The translations under genes were made by a program, and so were the position numbers. Below are positions 22,255 to 27,816 of a stretch of DNA of 64,000 nucleotides, piece after piece. Below the pieces are notes generated by a model. That model ran no database searches, was not told the DNA's origin, and worked only from the letters and a program-made list of their open reading frames with translations. Origin of the DNA: Candidatus Latescibacterota bacterium (lineage in GTDB: Bacteria; Latescibacterota; UBA2968); the NCBI GenBank assembly GCA_965116885.1, contig OZ220741.1, positions 3,776,001-3,840,000 of the forward strand. The letters are read 5' to 3'. Position 1 is the stretch's first letter. Every line of letters begins with the position of its first letter.

Positions 22255-22284
22255 TTCATCTGCGTTCATCTGCGTTCATCTGCG
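22255..22284 (-). repeat. Tandem repeat CGCAGATGAA x3 (GGAT/AGAT family)
   Basis: TTCATCTGCG x3 on the + strand; contains the stop codon of the phosphoesterase gene. Confidence 0.75.
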
Positions 22285-24316
22285 GATACTTTTCGCCTAT
22301 TACTACCAAAATTGGCAAGCCATCCCGTATTTCTATTTGGGCGTCGCGAGACACTGTTTCGGTTTCTCCGGTGCATAGATGATAGATGCGAACAGGGCTG
22401 ATGTCGAGTGAAAATTCAAGGGTGTCGAGATCGAAAATATCTTGGGCAGGTAGTACGAGAGCGAGTTGGCGATTGGTGTTGTTGAGATACAGGACACGGT
22501 TGTTTTCGCATATTTGTTCGGCGGGATCTGTAAAGGTGGTGTCGTGAACGGGACTGTTGAGGAGTGTGTTCAGACAACGCAGGGTGTGAAAGGGAGGACG
22601 GGGGTTGCAGAGGGTGTCGAGCAATCCATGTGTGACATCCATTGTGCGGTCAAAGTCGGTGAGTGGATCGACAAAGAGACGTGCGCCTGGCAGGCGGACA
22701 ATGGCAAATGTGGCTTCGGCAATTCGGCGGGCATTGGTGCTGTCGTTCTGCGCGTCTAATTCGAGGGATATGTCGATGTAGCCGATATTCGAGTATTTGC
22801 GTTCGCTCAGGGATTGGATATAAGTCCAGGGCGATTGGTTGGGCGGTACGCGGCTGAGTACGCGCTGCAGGTGCATATCGGCATTTTGAAGGGTCGCATT
22901 CAGGTTTTCGAGTTCGTCGAGTTGATAACCCATTCGGGTTCGCAGGTGTTGTTTGCCGTGTACGCGTTCGTTGGGGATGATGGGACAAATCGAGAGTTCT
23001 GCGAGTTCTGCACATCGATTGAGTGTTTCGCAAACTTCATCGGATGATAGCGAAGGATCAGATATCTGAATTTCCCAGTTCTGTATGAGATCGAGGTTGG
23101 CTTTGATGTGTTCGGGCAATGAGGCGATGCGCGGTTCGAGGAATGTGGCAATGGGCGTTATCCCTTCGGCACAGAGCATTTCGAGGCGTGTGCGCTGAAA
23201 GGGGTCGCGCAGGTCGCGCCAGGGAAAGCGCACAAATTTGGTGCCGAGTTCTATGCAGGCAAAAAGATGCTGGTCATTGCGCACTTTTTGACGTATGACA
23301 GAGGGATAGGCGATTGGGAGTTCCGCAATGGGCGTGATGGGGTGGCGAAGGGTGAGCCCAACGGGGGAAGACAGAGTGGCGGATGTGCAGGTGACGAGGC
23401 GGTCGCGGGCAGGGCGTTTTGTTTCGCCTTTTGTGCGGATGAAGTGGATGTCGGTGTGTTCGGCGCGTATGCGGAGGAGATAAAATCCCAGCTTGCCCGT
23501 GTCGTCTCGCCCCTGTTCGGGTGGCGGCGCACTGGCATAGAGATGACCGAATCCCGGGCGCGTAAAGGATGTGGAAGGGGTGATGAAATAGCGCGTTTTT
23601 CCAATTTTGTCATAAAAGGGATAGTGTACGTGTGCAGCGAAGAGGCGTTCGATTCCGTATTTTTCAATCAGTGCGAGGAGGCGGTCTCGATCTGGCGGGC
23701 TGATATTGTCGTAGTGTCCCAATCCCGGTTCATTTTTATCCCCAAGATACAAGGGCAGGTGAAAGAAGAGAAAGAGCCGCTGATTTTTATGTTTTTCAAG
23801 GTCGGATTCAAACCATTCCCACTGGTCGTCTGCTTCGGGGATTTTTGAGTTGAGGATCTGGGAATTGAGCACGATAAAATGACAATCGTCGCGGTCAAAA
23901 CTGTACCAGGAAGGTCCAAAGAGTTCGTGGAAGAATGCGAGCGATTCCGCGGTTGCCGCATGGGTGGGCATGGTGGGGTCAGCTTTGTCGCCGATATCGT
24001 GATTGCCAGCGACATAGTGGGGAGAAATATTACAGGCGCGTATCTGATCGCGCGCTTCGAACATCGCGCGTTTGAAGTCCGGTGTTCCGGGATATTCCTG
24101 GACGAGGTCGCCCATGTGGATGACAAAGTCCGCCCCTATATCTGATACCTGTTGCAGGGCAATGCCAGCACGCTGGGTTTGCACGCGGCGCGATTCAAAT
24201 TCGAGGGGGCGGTCGCCAACGTCAATCATGTAATGCGTGTCGGCGATGACCACGTATTCAAATTGAGCGGGGGGGAGGTGGGTTTTGTCGAAGATTATTC
24301 TTTTTCTGCTTTCCAT
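22256..24316 (-). CDS. Calcineurin-like metallophosphoesterase with large unknown C-terminal domain
   Basis: ADTH, MGD, GNHD, HLP and AHVH motifs in the first ~290 aa; overlaps the end of ftrC by 22 bp. Confidence 0.82.
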   Translation of the reverse strand: MESRKRIIFDKTHLPPAQFEYVVIADTHYMIDVGDRPLEFESRRVQTQRAGIALQQVSDIGADFVIHMGDLVQEYPGTPDFKRAMFEARDQIRACNISPHYVAGNHDIGDKADPTMPTHAATAESLAFFHELFGPSWYSFDRDDCHFIVLNSQILNSKIPEADDQWEWFESDLEKHKNQRLFLFFHLPLYLGDKNEPGLGHYDNISPPDRDRLLALIEKYGIERLFAAHVHYPFYDKIGKTRYFITPSTSFTRPGFGHLYASAPPPEQGRDDTGKLGFYLLRIRAEHTDIHFIRTKGETKRPARDRLVTCTSATLSSPVGLTLRHPITPIAELPIAYPSVIRQKVRNDQHLFACIELGTKFVRFPWRDLRDPFQRTRLEMLCAEGITPIATFLEPRIASLPEHIKANLDLIQNWEIQISDPSLSSDEVCETLNRCAELAELSICPIIPNERVHGKQHLRTRMGYQLDELENLNATLQNADMHLQRVLSRVPPNQSPWTYIQSLSERKYSNIGYIDISLELDAQNDSTNARRIAEATFAIVRLPGARLFVDPLTDFDRTMDVTHGLLDTLCNPRPPFHTLRCLNTLLNSPVHDTTFTDPAEQICENNRVLYLNNTNRQLALVLPAQDIFDLDTLEFSLDISPVRIYHLCTGETETVSRDAQIEIRDGLPILVVIGEKYPQMNADERR

Positions 24317-24720
24317 TCGGCGATTTTTTCATCGGCTTTGCGACGCAGTTCGCGGCCCTTGTCCGGGGTGGGGTCTTCGATGAGGCCATAGACCTGGCGG
24401 CCTTCGTGATCTTCGGGTAAGTATTCTGTAATGGGCATGCCTTCAGGGGTGACAAAGAGCAGGCAGTGACAGTATTTGAAAATTTTCATTTCGTCACAGG
24501 CACAGACCCATTCGCGGCTGCGTTCGAGTTCGGCCTTTTTGTCGGGATAAAAGTTGCAGGGGCAAAGCGGACGGCCCAGTTCGTCGATGTTTTCTGCAAG
24601 ACCGCAGATGACTGTGTCGGCGACTTCCCGGGTCGGATGCGGCGATGTCCCGGTTTTTTCCCAGTATTTTTCCGTGTATATCTGCATTCTTTTGAGGCTT
24701 TTTTCTGTGGGTTCTGACAT
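24295..24720 (-). CDS. ftrC: Ferredoxin:thioredoxin reductase catalytic (beta) subunit
   Basis: CPC...CAC...CHC cysteine triplets (LCPCNF, VCACDEM, YCHCLLF). Confidence 0.88.
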   Translation of the reverse strand: MSEPTEKSLKRMQIYTEKYWEKTGTSPHPTREVADTVICGLAENIDELGRPLCPCNFYPDKKAELERSREWVCACDEMKIFKYCHCLLFVTPEGMPITEYLPEDHEGRQVYGLIEDPTPDKGRELRRKADEKIAEWKAEKE

Positions 24721-24830
24721 GGCGATACCGATCCTTTCTTTCTAGCACATCTTAACATAAGAAGTGTTAGACAATGCATGCTTGTTCAAGCATGGAGTGA
24801 TCTCTCAACGCACGCAGAAAGATTCCACGT
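24710..24830 (-). ncRNA. Putative TnpB omegaRNA (scaffold overlapping tnpB 3' end, plus flank-derived guide)
   Basis: Hairpins CATGCTTG-AA-CAAGCATG and CTAACACTTCTTA-TGT-TAAGATGTGCTAG, then AAAGAAAGGATCGG. Boundaries are inferred. Confidence 0.55.
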
Positions 24831-26263
24831 GCTCCGTTTATATCTCGATCCATTTGTTGACCATCTTTACTCACCACCGTCTTGCGTCCTCCAAGATTTG
24901 CTATCACTTCACCTGTCCAACTCACTGTCTTGGACGTGTAGGCTTCATTGACAATCAGCACACGCTTGTTGTTCTGCCACGCTTTCCACTGGAGAAAAAT
25001 CTTAAAACGGTGGTGCGCCCAGGTCAGCATACTTCGCACAGACTTTGAACGTATCCTACGCTTCGATCTTTGTATCATATCTGATACATTGAAGGACGGC
25101 AATAAGATCAGATCAAAGTTATCGACAAGCCATCTGGCACACTGATGATGCAACTCATCAACAAGATTGCGAATGCGGCTTCGCATACGTCTTTGTGCAT
25201 GGCGCATACGCTTTTTGCGATAGGATAACTTTTCTCGTTTTGTCCTGCTGATCAAGTTGTCAAGGTGGTGACACATACGAACAATATGACCAAAGTCATT
25301 CTCACCAACCTTGCCACAATTGGTCGGGCTAAAGAAGGTCTGAAAACTCCGTATCCCTGGATCGAGTGCCACCACACGTCCTTGGGTCTCGGTTGCATTG
25401 CGATGGACTTTTTGGGGGACACACAGATAGTAGGCATCTCGTATTTTGACAAGACGACTATCAAAACATTCTTCTGGCAAAGACTCTGACAGTTTTAACA
25501 CGCCAAGTATGGTATGATAAACTCCTTTCTCGCTTATGGTTGACTTGGTGATATAGCAACTCTGTATCGGATGTTTCCTGCTTCTGAAACGCAACTTGGC
25601 GTAGCTCTCGCTATTCTTGCGTTCCTTGTTATATCTGATCACGGCTTTGCAAGACAAGCAGGCCTCCTTGACAGCATTGCGTTTGATCTGGTATGGCACA
25701 GACAAAAACCGCTCTGGAATAACACATGCCTTAATGATGTGCCACATTTTGATGTAATTCGGATAAGGAGCCGCTTCTCCTGTCAGCACTTCTACTGTCT
25801 GGTTGTAGAACCACCGTGCAGCATCCAGCCATACACGGATGATTTGACGCTGATTATTCACTGGATAAACTCTAATCTTCTTTGATTGCCTGTCTGTACC
25901 TTCGTAGTCCGTGCAGGCGACGAGAGAACGTATAGAGGATGGGCAAAATATCTTGTGTGAGTTCCGCTTTGGGGCTTGCACTTGGGTCATTGAGAACCAG
26001 AACCTCGTTCCCGTTTTGCTGTGCCATCCATTCGATGAGTTCAAAGCCAAATCTTGCAAGGCGGTCTTTGTTGGCAACCACAATCTGGAGCTTTTCTCCG
26101 CGATGTAGTCGTTCCAGTAACTTGAGGAGTCCTTTTCGCTTGTAGTTGAGTCTGCCGCTAGTGTCTCTGACAATTTCCGATCCTTTGAATTGCTCTTGCA
26201 TTGACGAAATTTGTTTTTTAAGGTCGTCTTTTTGGTTTTTGATACTAACTCGGCAGTAGCCAA
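24767..26263 (-). CDS. tnpB: RNA-guided endonuclease TnpB, IS607/pro-Fanzor type
   Basis: KKIRVYP...WLDAARWFYN; RuvC-I ALDPG; RuvC-II LLPSF with downstream NEAYTSKT; RuvC-III DRDINGARGI. Start is uncertain (TTG 26263 or ATG 25990). Confidence 0.9.
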   Translation of the reverse strand: MATAELVSKTKKTTLKNKFRQCKSNSKDRKLSETLAADSTTSEKDSSSYWNDYIAEKSSRLWLPTKTALQDLALNSSNGWHSKTGTRFWFSMTQVQAPKRNSHKIFCPSSIRSLVACTDYEGTDRQSKKIRVYPVNNQRQIIRVWLDAARWFYNQTVEVLTGEAAPYPNYIKMWHIIKACVIPERFLSVPYQIKRNAVKEACLSCKAVIRYNKERKNSESYAKLRFRSRKHPIQSCYITKSTISEKGVYHTILGVLKLSESLPEECFDSRLVKIRDAYYLCVPQKVHRNATETQGRVVALDPGIRSFQTFFSPTNCGKVGENDFGHIVRMCHHLDNLISRTKREKLSYRKKRMRHAQRRMRSRIRNLVDELHHQCARWLVDNFDLILLPSFNVSDMIQRSKRRIRSKSVRSMLTWAHHRFKIFLQWKAWQNNKRVLIVNEAYTSKTVSWTGEVIANLGGRKTVVSKDGQQMDRDINGARGIFLRALRDHSMLEQACIV

Positions 26264-26352
26264 ACAACGGTCGCGTCACTTGCTCGGCGCAAGAAGTCAT
26301 CGACAGCCTAACGGCTATACCCACCCTCCGTACGAAAAGTCTTTATGCATCC
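25872..26352 (-). pseudogene. tnpA: IS607 transposase TnpA (serine recombinase), disrupted
   Basis: YCRVS..QKDDL, LNYKRKGL, KDRLARFGFELI and FSRRLHGLR motifs. The upstream remnant GCIKTFRTEGGYSR*AVDDFL..TVV is in another frame (TAG at 26310-26308; extra T at 26262-26264). No intact HTH start. Confidence 0.82.
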
Positions 26353-26437
26353 CAACGTTGCCACTTTTTGTTACTTTGCATCACCTTCAGATTTTTCAAA
26401 TGTGTTGTGGACTTACAACATGGTTGAAAAATGGGCA

Positions 26438-27742
26438 TCATTCCCACTGCTTTCCCCATAACTTCTGTGCAATCTCCGCGACATTCAATTGATCGATGTC
26501 GTCTCCAATAACTTTTCGCAAATTCTCATACCGAGTACTCTGCATACCACCGCGCGACGACTTGACATATTGAGTCTCATTGAGTGCTCCACAGAAGTAG
26601 AGTTGCCCAGGTGCATTGTCCCAGCCGAGTAACGCCTTTGTGTCTTTGAGACTTTCGATGATTTTGTTGTCGTACTCATCGGTATCTCGCCCTTCCATCA
26701 ACGTCTTTTTTAGATTTACCCCGTCATATTTAATATCAAAAATACTATCAATCTCCAAAATTGCCCGTACGGCCTTGTCTTTGTATAACCCCAAAAACCG
26801 ATGCCTCTTGCTATAACGACGATCTGATGGACAAAAGTAAACGCCGTATTTTTTGTTTATCTCAAGGCTGTTACCACAAGGTACCATTCTCATAAGATAT
26901 TTCGATGGATCGAAGGATTGCGCTTGGACAGCGAATTGCCTGTTGAGATAATCCATAGATTTTCGAAGTTCTGCTCTCGCATCGCCCGGGGGGATGCTGC
27001 ATTCAAAACCGCAGTAGTAATCGTAACCGATGTCGGACAGTGATTTGAGGGGGGGACCAAAATCCGTGTGACCATAGCCCGGCAAAATGCGATTGCTGTC
27101 GGCCAGATGTACATTGGCGATGTGTTTATCCCCTGCGCGGATGGCGTCGGCGAGGTCGGCTTCCTCGATGCTCATGTGGAAGAGATCAGCCATGGTGGCG
27201 ATAGATGGGCTGCCCACTGCTTCGCAGATTTCAACGCCCTGAGCAACTGTGCAGGGCCACCACTGTTCGTAGCGGTTCAGGGGTTCGATGATCAGAAGAC
27301 TGTCGCACGCTTCGGCATGCGGTGCGATGTCTCGTTTGAGAATTTCGATGAGGAGATCTTTTTCAAGTGCAGATGTGCTGTACAGGGGAGAAAGATCGGG
27401 AATGCGTTGCCCACCGCCCATTTTGATGCCGATGAGCGGTGGGAATATCACGCCTACACCGCCGACTTCAGCACACAGGGTGAGGGCGTCGTTAATGGAT
27501 TTTACGGCTGTGCGGCGTTCTTCGGGACGTGCGTCGAGCAGGCGATTGCCGCCCCGGGCAGAGCAAATATTGGGCACGATACCCGTCGCGTCTGACGCTG
27601 CTTTGATCTCATCTGCAAAATCTGCGGTGCTGCTATTGGTGATTTCTATGCCGGAAAATCCGAGTTCTTTGAGGGTCTGGAATTTCTCCATCAGGGTGTT
27701 GCCAGGGGCCATGGGTTCGCGAAGAGAATATTTGATGGTCAT
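26438..27742 (-). CDS. Sugar phosphate isomerase/epimerase (xylose-isomerase-like TIM barrel) fused to a foreign C-terminal domain
   Basis: IEPLNRYE, ADLFHM, HLADSNR..PGYGH and FEC motifs, followed in frame by ~160 unrelated, AT-richer codons. Confidence 0.82.
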   Translation of the reverse strand: MTIKYSLREPMAPGNTLMEKFQTLKELGFSGIEITNSSTADFADEIKAASDATGIVPNICSARGGNRLLDARPEERRTAVKSINDALTLCAEVGGVGVIFPPLIGIKMGGGQRIPDLSPLYSTSALEKDLLIEILKRDIAPHAEACDSLLIIEPLNRYEQWWPCTVAQGVEICEAVGSPSIATMADLFHMSIEEADLADAIRAGDKHIANVHLADSNRILPGYGHTDFGPPLKSLSDIGYDYYCGFECSIPPGDARAELRKSMDYLNRQFAVQAQSFDPSKYLMRMVPCGNSLEINKKYGVYFCPSDRRYSKRHRFLGLYKDKAVRAILEIDSIFDIKYDGVNLKKTLMEGRDTDEYDNKIIESLKDTKALLGWDNAPGQLYFCGALNETQYVKSSRGGMQSTRYENLRKVIGDDIDQLNVAEIAQKLWGKQWE

Positions 27743-27788
27743 AATCAGTTCCGATATGGATTGGGAATTTATGAAAACGCCTACAGAC

Positions 27789-27816
27789 AATATACCGCCT
27801 TATGGATAAAAGGCAA
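27789..27816 (-). promoter_or_regulatory. Sigma70-type promoter
   Basis: TTGCCT-N16-TATATT upstream of 27742. Confidence 0.4.

Follow-up and report, generated by a model that had tools for sequence, protein, structure and literature searches.

An IS607-family element end in the Shine-Dalgarno sequence of an ftrC-like gene of Candidatus Latescibacterota, in a lineage that inserts before gene starts

The stretch considered here is a window of 64,000 nucleotides from a Candidatus Latescibacterota bacterium (assembly GCA_965116885.1, contig OZ220741.1, positions 3,776,001 to 3,840,000), in which a gene resembling ftrC is directly preceded by the right end of an insertion sequence (IS) of the IS607 family. 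All site positions are given on the minus strand and in window coordinates, and Table 1 collects the features. The ftrC-like gene has orthologues of 90-100% identity in 19 of 20 congeners. It is followed by a metallophosphoesterase gene, presumed to be the next gene of the same operon, and then by a PhyH-family gene. On its other side lie two hairpins and the 3' end of tnpB, whose TAA stop codon is at 24769-24767. Beyond them AAAGAAAGGATCGG terminates at 24728 and is followed by TATCGCC (24727-24721) and the ATG of ftrC (24720-24718). The original prediction, made from the letters of this stretch, had described the hairpins, the tnpB 3' end, the junction and the ftrC start, and its description is exact to the base. 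Across about 24730-26900 the GC content is low and the GC skew reversed. The evidence presented below makes it highly probable that an IS607-family right end (tnpA and a tnpB of the DPG / alternative-glutamate kind) was placed in the Shine-Dalgarno (SD) sequence of ftrC; its last part would be the scaffold of a guide RNA for homing and would also supply a substitute SD.

The position of the right end is given by comparison with other copies. A second copy in the same genome (copy B, locus L002) is 90% identical to the window copy over 1,635 bp; the two agree as far as GATCGG and show no relation beyond it. Solo right-end remnants in the congeners G002, G011 and G006 also diverge from the window at 24728, more distant copies in G004, G014, G010 and G019 break at the same base, and in contigs from RNA libraries (two studies; three of four runs) the match stops at 24728 and continues into other flanks, one of which is the flank of copy B. 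Because all of these diverge at the same point, the right end lies at 24728, which is the boundary GG|TATCGCC drawn in the original prediction. The 10-mer AAAGGATCGG at this end also occurs within the tnpA remnant of the window, where copy B has AAAGGAGCGG; since the genome holds 25 occurrences of it, this one is treated as chance. In runs X2 and X3 the end is joined to CAACCTTGGCC..., a flank that differs from both ftrC and the copy-B gene and lacks a start codon within its first 30 nt. It marks a further insertion site in an uncultured relative.

The insertion point can be read from alleles that lack the element. The 120 nt ahead of the ftrC start were read in 19 congeners, and the element is absent from all of them. 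Eighteen carry GGAGG 5-8 nt before the start, typically as AAAACTGGAGG TAYASGCC ATG and with the consensus CTGGAGG|TAyAsGCC-ATG, while the nineteenth (L019) has AAAGGAATGACCT in place of the GGAGG form. The end sequence AGAAAGGATCGG, whose presence in an IS-free allele would have spoken against an insertion, is never found in them. RNA-library contigs (three of four runs) also hold the empty form, with 24724 joined to 26940 and 42 other letters between. Because the IS-free alleles read GGAGG|TA..., the element entered at the last GG of the native ftrC SD and kept the 7-nt spacer, just as had been proposed from the window.

Two further loci offer the same comparison. The site of copy B is empty in all 11 congener loci compared (ATGGAGG|CGATAA-ATG, with no intervening sequence), and these empty sites fix the left end of an intact element as TTGTACAAAG.... 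In G000 an empty rplM-rpsI junction runs from the rplM stop through TAGAGGAG|GTGATTAT to the TTG of rpsI and is split after AGGAG, where G010 reads ...TAGAGGAG-[element]-GTGATATT-TTG (locus L040, 1190-2980; empty counterpart G000:C1:3663230-3663320). At all three empty sites the insertion lies at the 3' edge of GGAGG or AGGAG, and the flanks of all three loci join without target-site duplication. The element ends in GATCGG, and the G010 lineage uses AG (TATCAG). A crossover at GG without target-site duplication, the behavior of IS607 elements, is therefore what these sites display, and the crossover that brought the element in front of ftrC took place at the final GG of the SD (CTGGAGG|TATCGCC-ATG). 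Since it is oriented like ftrC, its final bases ...AAAGGATCGG now stand 7 nt before the ATG.

Table 1. Features of the ftrC locus and of the element end, in window coordinates.
Feature	Position	Strand	Basis or description
Metallophosphoesterase-domain gene, 686 amino acids, overlaps the ftrC stop	22256..24316	-	Pfam Metallophos, E 3.9e-11
ftrC-like gene, 141 amino acids, ferredoxin-thioredoxin reductase catalytic chain family	24295..24720	-	Pfam FeThRed_B, E 6.4e-19; start codon 24720-24718
Predicted guide segment TATCGCCATGTCAGAACCCA: 7-nt SD-to-ATG spacer and ftrC codons 1-4	24708..24727	-	First non-element DNA past the right end
GG crossover dinucleotide: terminal bases of the element and final GG of the original GGAGG SD	24728..24729	-	Empty alleles, copy B, RNA-library contigs
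Predicted omegaRNA/reRNA scaffold, overlaps the tnpB 3' end	24728..24840	-	Fold and covariation
Single-stranded A-rich linker with AAAGGA	24737-24732	-	
Hairpin S4 (second hairpin of the original prediction), spans the tnpB stop codon	24742..24770	-	Sequence, CTAACACTTCTTA-TGT-TAAGATGTGCTAG, 24770-24742, 11 of 13 pairs; folds of relatives
tnpB core, 371 codons from KKIRVYP plus stop, intact	24767..25882	-	Pfam Cas12f1-like_TNB, OrfB_IS605, HTH_OrfB_IS605
Hairpin S3 (first hairpin of the original prediction), inside the tnpB coding sequence	24777..24794	-	Sequence, CATGCTTG-AA-CAAGCATG, 24794-24777, 8 of 8 pairs; folds of relatives
Scaffold closing helix	GAUC 24802-24799 with GAUC 24733-24730	-	
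Scaffold S2, 3 pairs	GAG 24806-24804 with CTC 24797-24795	-	
Scaffold S1, 10-pair hairpin in the codons for ...NGARGIFLRAL...	24832-24810	-	
tnpA (serine recombinase) pseudogene remnant	25872..26362	-	Comparison with copy B; Resolvase domain
Foreign segment outside the IS, 3' half of another gene	26363..26941	-	72% DNA match to G001, beside the G001 ftrC

The proteins point to the same family. Pfam places TnpB domains and Resolvase (E 1.7e-16) on the window copy, and copy B encodes an intact TnpA of 191 amino acids with a MerR helix-turn-helix (HTH; E 8e-10) and Resolvase (E 7e-18), in agreement with the IS607-type assignment first given to the element. The TnpB core is 90% identical to that of copy B and 52-53% identical to those of other lineages. 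Its DPG, NEAYTSKT and DRD motifs are invariant in the five aligned TnpB copies and fit the DPG / alternative-glutamate signature in the main text of PMC10711439, save that both CxxC pairs are replaced in all five. In these alignments (columns about 320-345), VSWT and V(V/T)xxDG stand where the signature has CxxC...CxxC; the zinc finger has been lost, but the segment is strongly conserved. Between the window copy and copy B, the ratio of nonsynonymous to synonymous substitution rates (dN/dS) of tnpB is 0.16.

The window copy itself is damaged on its left side. Homology to copy B begins within tnpA at 26362, so the left end is gone, together with about the first 90 bp of tnpA. The remainder of tnpA has a TAG in its HTH remnant, where copy B has TAT, and a one-base insertion (G) ahead of the catalytic-serine motif causes a frameshift. 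Both ends are present in copy B but not in the window copy, whose tnpB and right end are intact. The window copy cannot move or excise, and the locus would therefore now be a fixed tnpB-scaffold-ftrC arrangement. Here the original prediction needs amending: its insertion site, end and guide position stand, but the loss of the left end and the dead tnpA had escaped it.

A separate observation concerns the reading frame upstream of the tnpB core, which stays open to 26263 (25883-26263) at +1 over most of tnpA, as it does in L002 (1521-1979) and in L054-L089. The overlap contains no stop over 132-194 codons in any of the 16 elements tested, which come from several phyla; seven further loci without a recognisable tnpA open reading frame (ORF) were dropped from this test. 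The other alternative frame over tnpA has 2-16 stops, and synonymous-codon shuffles of tnpA give means of 1.9-6.2 stops, with a probability of 0 stops between 0.000 and 0.08 per element. The word "overlap" is absent from PMC3627910 and PMC10711439. With the tnpB frame at +1 to tnpA, a TnpA-TnpB fusion made by frameshifting was considered, but inspection by eye revealed no conserved slippery site and the idea was dropped.

The slot between ftrC and the xylose-isomerase-like TIM-barrel gene upstream (26438-27790) has a history of its own. The foreign segment (26363-26941) matches the 3' half of a gene of 324 amino acids which G001 carries between its TIM-barrel gene and ftrC. In the window the segment continues the reading frame of the TIM-barrel gene, and 42 nt of the native intergenic DNA are absent. 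The product is a fusion of 450 amino acids, compared with about 270 in relatives (...MDYLNSHL); after ...MDYLN comes the in-frame C-terminal half of the unrelated gene. For the latter, Pfam gives nothing above threshold (a weak PDDEXK_4 match has E 0.069), and the slot of G001 also holds an opposite-strand ORF of 159 amino acids. Among congeners the slot is variable (loci L017 in G019, L018 in G001, L020 in G016 and L021 in G018). In G019 the end of the TIM-barrel gene is directly joined to the SD (ctcaacaATCTGGAGG), while G001, G016 and G018 have different upstream sequence before CTGGAGGAATCC-ATG.

Turning to the RNA that may be made from the right end, the stretch of 91-140 nt that precedes the end has a better fold than its dinucleotide shuffles, with z below -2 in 27 of 29 members and a mean z of -3.35 (-2.76 for the window copy). 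The single-sequence fold of a longer 253-nt stretch gives the contrary result (z -0.87, not significant and no better than shuffles); the signal is confined to the last ~110 nt and to the family comparison. The fold recurs in relatives in the order S1, S2, S3, S4 and a long-range helix in which GAUAC-type bases in tnpB pair with GUAUC-type bases just before the terminal GG. The two hairpins noticed at the outset are S3 and S4 of this family-wide fold. Covariation was counted over 18 pairs of the hand-named helices in well-aligned columns of 29 ends, with S3 and S4 outside the count. Overall, 92% of cells are paired compared with 80.5% in shuffles, and none of 500 shuffles is as high. With slid partners the figure is 38-54%, a control that favours the structure because it was partly derived from the same sequences. 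Changes on both sides are found in eight pairs of the scaffold. The closing helix is 96.6% paired, and three of its five pairs have changed on both sides (GAUAC/GUAUC, GAUC/GAUC, GACAG/CUGUC, GAUAG/CUAUC). By eye, S3 is wholly different in sequence between lineages yet still pairs in most relatives, and a hairpin is predicted at the place of S4 in relatives. RNAalifold on a MAFFT alignment of the 29 ends returned only 3 pairs because the variable hairpins are misaligned, and per-sequence folds and helix counts were used instead. An RNA fold that is conserved and covarying thus occupies the last ~110 nt and stops at the GG.

The hairpins could also be viewed as DNA signals for the recombinase, that is as repeats bound by TnpA, with a Cys-less TnpB that makes no functional guide RNA. 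Both arms of S4 carry a TCTAAC-type repeat that is present twice at the left end of copy B, and since this repeat is common to left and right ends, S4 may double as TnpA-binding DNA. The shared subterminal motifs are TCTAAC in copy B (L002 1377-1451 and 3061-3135) and GTCAACA at the ends of G010 (L027). Repeat units at IS607 ends are noted in a figure legend of the review PMC13565253, and the absence of the zinc-finger cysteines is in keeping with this explanation. However, S1, S2 and the closing helix are situated within coding DNA, well away from the end, and their covariation comes from synonymous or compensated changes. Pair 110-158 shows six pair types, GAUAC/GUAUC alternates with the three other forms of the closing helix, and S3 keeps its pairing through a complete change of sequence. 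DNA and RNA roles can coexist, and a fold that serves the recombinase in place of a guide RNA is judged very unlikely.

As an RNA, the fold has a close published model. The main text of PMC10711439 describes for ISXfa1 a GG crossover, the target-adjacent motif (TAM) GGG and a right-end RNA (reRNA) of ~150 nt running past the end, in which the guide begins after a fixed flanking nucleotide that belongs to the scaffold. By analogy, we infer that the fold is the scaffold of a TnpB guide RNA with the flank TATCGCCATGTCAGAAC as its guide, which would start at 24727. As far as sequence can tell, there is a structured scaffold at the tnpB 3' end that stops at the right end and is followed by a variable flank, and TATCGCCATGTCAGAAC lies directly after the covarying scaffold, in the guide position originally assigned to it. 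Both the left flanks and the empty sites have a conserved motif 5' of the left end that equals the target motif of the transposase. The TAM would then be the SD-like motif that abuts the guide sequence in the empty site. The 20-mer TATCGCCATGTCAGAACCCA is unique in the genome, its single exact match being the locus itself, and three sites agree with its first 16 nt at 2 mismatches or fewer, none of them after a purine-GG motif. TnpB and the scaffold RNA would cut IS-free alleles that carry an SD-like TAM beside the guide sequence, the homing role known from IS607 TnpBs.

The position at ftrC is typical of the lineage. Fifteen distinct insertion sites were counted within the genus, with G002 and G011 taken as one orthologous site. 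At 13 of these, an ORF of 60 amino acids or more has its start codon within 0-11 nt of the end, and the downstream gene is always in the orientation of the element. By comparison, a start is found within this distance at 20% of 20,000 random GG sites and at 23% of 12,433 intergenic RRGG sites (R, purine; crude gene map). Nine of the 11 downstream ORFs scanned have a Pfam match above cut-off, mostly from near the first profile position, with the families UxuA, GFO/IDH/MocA, STAS, glycine-cleavage P, ankyrin, DUF433, sulfatase and ribosomal S9; among the 11, PD40 falls just under its cut-off and two ORFs are without a match. The ftrC-like gene and the PhyH gene behind copy B are two further downstream Pfam matches. 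The left flanks end in GAGG, AAGG or AGGG in six of seven GG-type copies, compared with 14.7% of random GG sites, and in GGAG in all four G010 copies. The lineage habitually inserts with SD-like purine runs (GGAGG, GAGG, AGGG, AGGAG) as left flanks and gene starts as right flanks. Beyond the genus, TnpB relatives at about 50% identity come from records titled Okeania, Moorena, Dehalococcoidia, Latescibacteria and others, and their ends share ...AAAAGTATCGG.

A pattern of this kind may arise by survivorship and not by targeting. The recombinase would then need only GG or a loose purine-rich motif, the least harmful copies would persist, and the SD-like end would be a by-product of the scaffold. 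According to the main text of 10.1101/2023.11.20.567912, IS607 integration strictly needs only GG and has a weak upstream preference. The left flanks are not uniform (GGAGG, TGAGG, GAAGG, AAGGG), sites in cyanobacterial and other distant relatives are often away from starts, and the GAUC/GUAUC end is held by a covarying helix. Yet 13 of 15 sites is far above the fraction expected even at intergenic RRGG sites, every crossover falls on the 3' edge of its purine run and none on the first GG of GGAGG, and the orientation is always that of the gene. In addition, the three start-associated lineages have AAGG in their ends, where G019 and the cyanobacterial ends have AAAGU. Survivorship is regarded as an unlikely explanation.

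If the insertion displaced the SD of ftrC, the gene would need another one. AAGGA in the element end could serve as the substitute, with ftrC translated from read-through transcripts that carry the scaffold as their leader. Such transcripts would come from beyond the element, given that the TIM-barrel gene and ftrC are just 42 nt apart in the empty allele. A promoter scan gave just one weak promoter-like site on the minus strand, inside tnpB (25102-25074, 9/12), and a terminator scan gave none between tnpB and ftrC; these scans carry no weight in either direction. At seven junctions of the GGATCGG type, AAGGA lies 8-11 nt before the start. That AAAGGA acts as a replacement SD is plausible, on the circumstantial evidence of a copy before the only rpsI of G010 and of remnants keeping exactly this end. 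The genome of G010 is rated 97% complete, and its one S9-family match comes immediately after the element end; with its sole essential rpsI there, the arrangement must permit transcription and translation of the gene. This copy is placed between rplM and rpsI, exactly after the AGGAG of the rpsI ribosome-binding site. What is left in the solo remnants is the terminal 115-160 bp, with 89% identity to the window end (L028 1501-1659 in G002, L029 1501-1654 in G011, L030 1501-1615 in G006), and stand 5-6 nt ahead of the ATG of intact genes, UxuA-like in G002 and G011 and GFO/IDH/MocA in G006. Their survival fits with the idea that the end is retained as the gene now depends on it. Given a substitute SD and read-through translation, an insertion would be nearly silent for the host.

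Whether the host also makes use of TnpB at this locus is a separate question. As the original prediction proposed, TnpB could bind or process the read-through transcripts, or bind the DNA, and thereby set the expression of ftrC and the phosphoesterase gene, the immobile copy being kept for this purpose. The intact tnpB next to a tnpA with three lesions, the dN/dS of 0.16, the 42-nt intergenic region of the empty allele with no room for a promoter of ftrC itself, so that its mRNA must cross the element, and the two AAGGA bases within the closing helix of the scaffold would all suit such a role. Moreover, TnpB processes its own mRNA into guide RNA according to PMC10278001, and TnpB-derived repressors (TldR) are described in 10.1101/2023.11.30.569447. 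On the other hand, the catalytic motifs are all kept, unlike in TldR, within a recognisable IS that has a tnpA remnant; the dN/dS mostly reflects the period when both copies were mobile; and the same architecture arises passively at every insertion of the family. The insertion is found in this genome and in none of 19 relatives, so there is no sign of long retention. Host regulation at ftrC is accordingly judged improbable.

Several observations weigh against the favoured reading, in which the element landed in the ftrC SD, brought a guide scaffold for homing and replaced the SD. The start-codon association has a binomial P of about 4e-7 relative to the 23% of intergenic RRGG sites, which overstates independence because the genomes are kin. 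Two of the 15 sites, both in G014, are without a nearby start codon, three further listed copies (two in G010 and one in G004) fall outside the 15-site count, and outside the group of the window about a third of sites adjoin a start codon, by eye. Nuclease activity of TnpB is not assured, because the signature zinc-finger cysteines are absent. A cmscan search of 24500-26500 with E up to 1 gave no match to any of 4227 Rfam families, RAGATH-18 included. At ftrC itself AAGGA is 11 nt from the ATG, and the pairing of two of its bases in the closing helix could hinder ribosome binding. Finally, the RNA-library contigs may stem from DNA, and none of them spans the junction between element and ftrC; they represent the empty allele and other copies.

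A more ambitious version would make the whole lineage a ribosome-binding-site homing element, in which the recombinase target and the TAM are both the host SD and AAGGA is an SD mimic that evolved within the scaffold. Each insertion would turn a start region into a guide and into the tail of a TnpB-bound leader, so that the copies, the immobile one at ftrC among them, would be ready-made TnpB-dependent switches of translation or transcription in the host, and the long tnpB frame would be a lineage-specific N-terminal extension that takes part. This version is speculative and, on balance, unlikely.

To place the locus in context, openly available papers on IS607 and on the target specificity of insertion sequences were searched, and none of those listed describes systematic insertion into ribosome-binding sites. 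The listed papers that join IS607 with Shine-Dalgarno concern TldR and flagellin. For other IS607 TnpBs, the main text of PMC11061315 reports an experimental TAM of 5'-AGGAG in 18 of 22 strains and 5'-GAGGG in 4 of 22, and AGGAG or GAGGG TAMs are also stated in the review PMC13565253. The link to the ribosome-binding site is not made in the main text of PMC11061315, from which "Shine", "ribosom" and "start codon" are absent. The element type and an SD-like TAM are thus already known, while systematic landing in ribosome-binding sites with a substitute SD in the element end appears to be undescribed. So far IS607/TnpB elements have been studied as selfish homing systems and compact genome editors, and their G-rich TAMs (GGG, TGGG, AGGAG, GAGGG) have been treated as arbitrary; here, in one lineage, the motif is the host ribosome-binding site, and the insertions stand 4-11 nt ahead of start codons in the orientation of the gene. 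This suggests a low-cost insertion strategy, in which the transcription of a host operon is taken and an SD is handed back, in near silence and in parallel to the intron of the IStron. The natural guides of these TnpBs would be host start-codon regions, and hence raw material for RNA-guided regulators. In practice, the pattern offers a rule for locating element ends and guides in the clade, and it predicts a GGAGG-type TAM for a Cys-less, Fanzor-related TnpB.

Four known systems bear comparison with the element. It most resembles the ISXfa1-type (PMC10711439) in its serine-recombinase TnpA with an N-terminal HTH (seen in copy B), in the lack of inverted repeats and target duplication with a GG crossover at both ends, in a TnpB with DPG and a glutamate six residues before the zinc-finger position, and in a predicted reRNA that overlaps the tnpB 3' end and runs past the right end, together with a G-rich TAM (GGG there). 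It differs in using a longer SD-like purine run, placed at gene starts in 13 of 15 sites, as target and left flank, in the replacement of the four zinc-finger cysteines (VSWT ... VVSKDG), and in the tnpB frame that is open over tnpA for 130-190 codons. With RAGATH-18-guided TnpBs such as ISFba1 (PMC11061315) it shares the motifs of its left flanks, AGGAG in G010 and GGAGG, GAGG or AGGG elsewhere, and yet its scaffold is a different RNA, because there is no match to RAGATH-18 or another Rfam family. In CboIStron (10.1101/2023.11.20.567912) the TnpA target TGGG equals the TnpB TAM; there, TnpB restores excised copies and a device lowers the cost of insertion to the host, as is suggested here. 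In CboIStron a self-splicing intron takes the element out of the mRNA, whereas the present element has no Rfam intron match and is proposed to combine insertion into the SD with a substitute SD. Finally, as in TldR (10.1101/2023.11.30.569447), a TnpB-family protein would be paired with a guide complementary to the 5' region of a neighbouring host gene. TldR, however, has lost its nuclease activity and transposon context and targets promoters; at ftrC the D, E and D motifs are kept, and the match between guide and gene is a passive result of the place of insertion.

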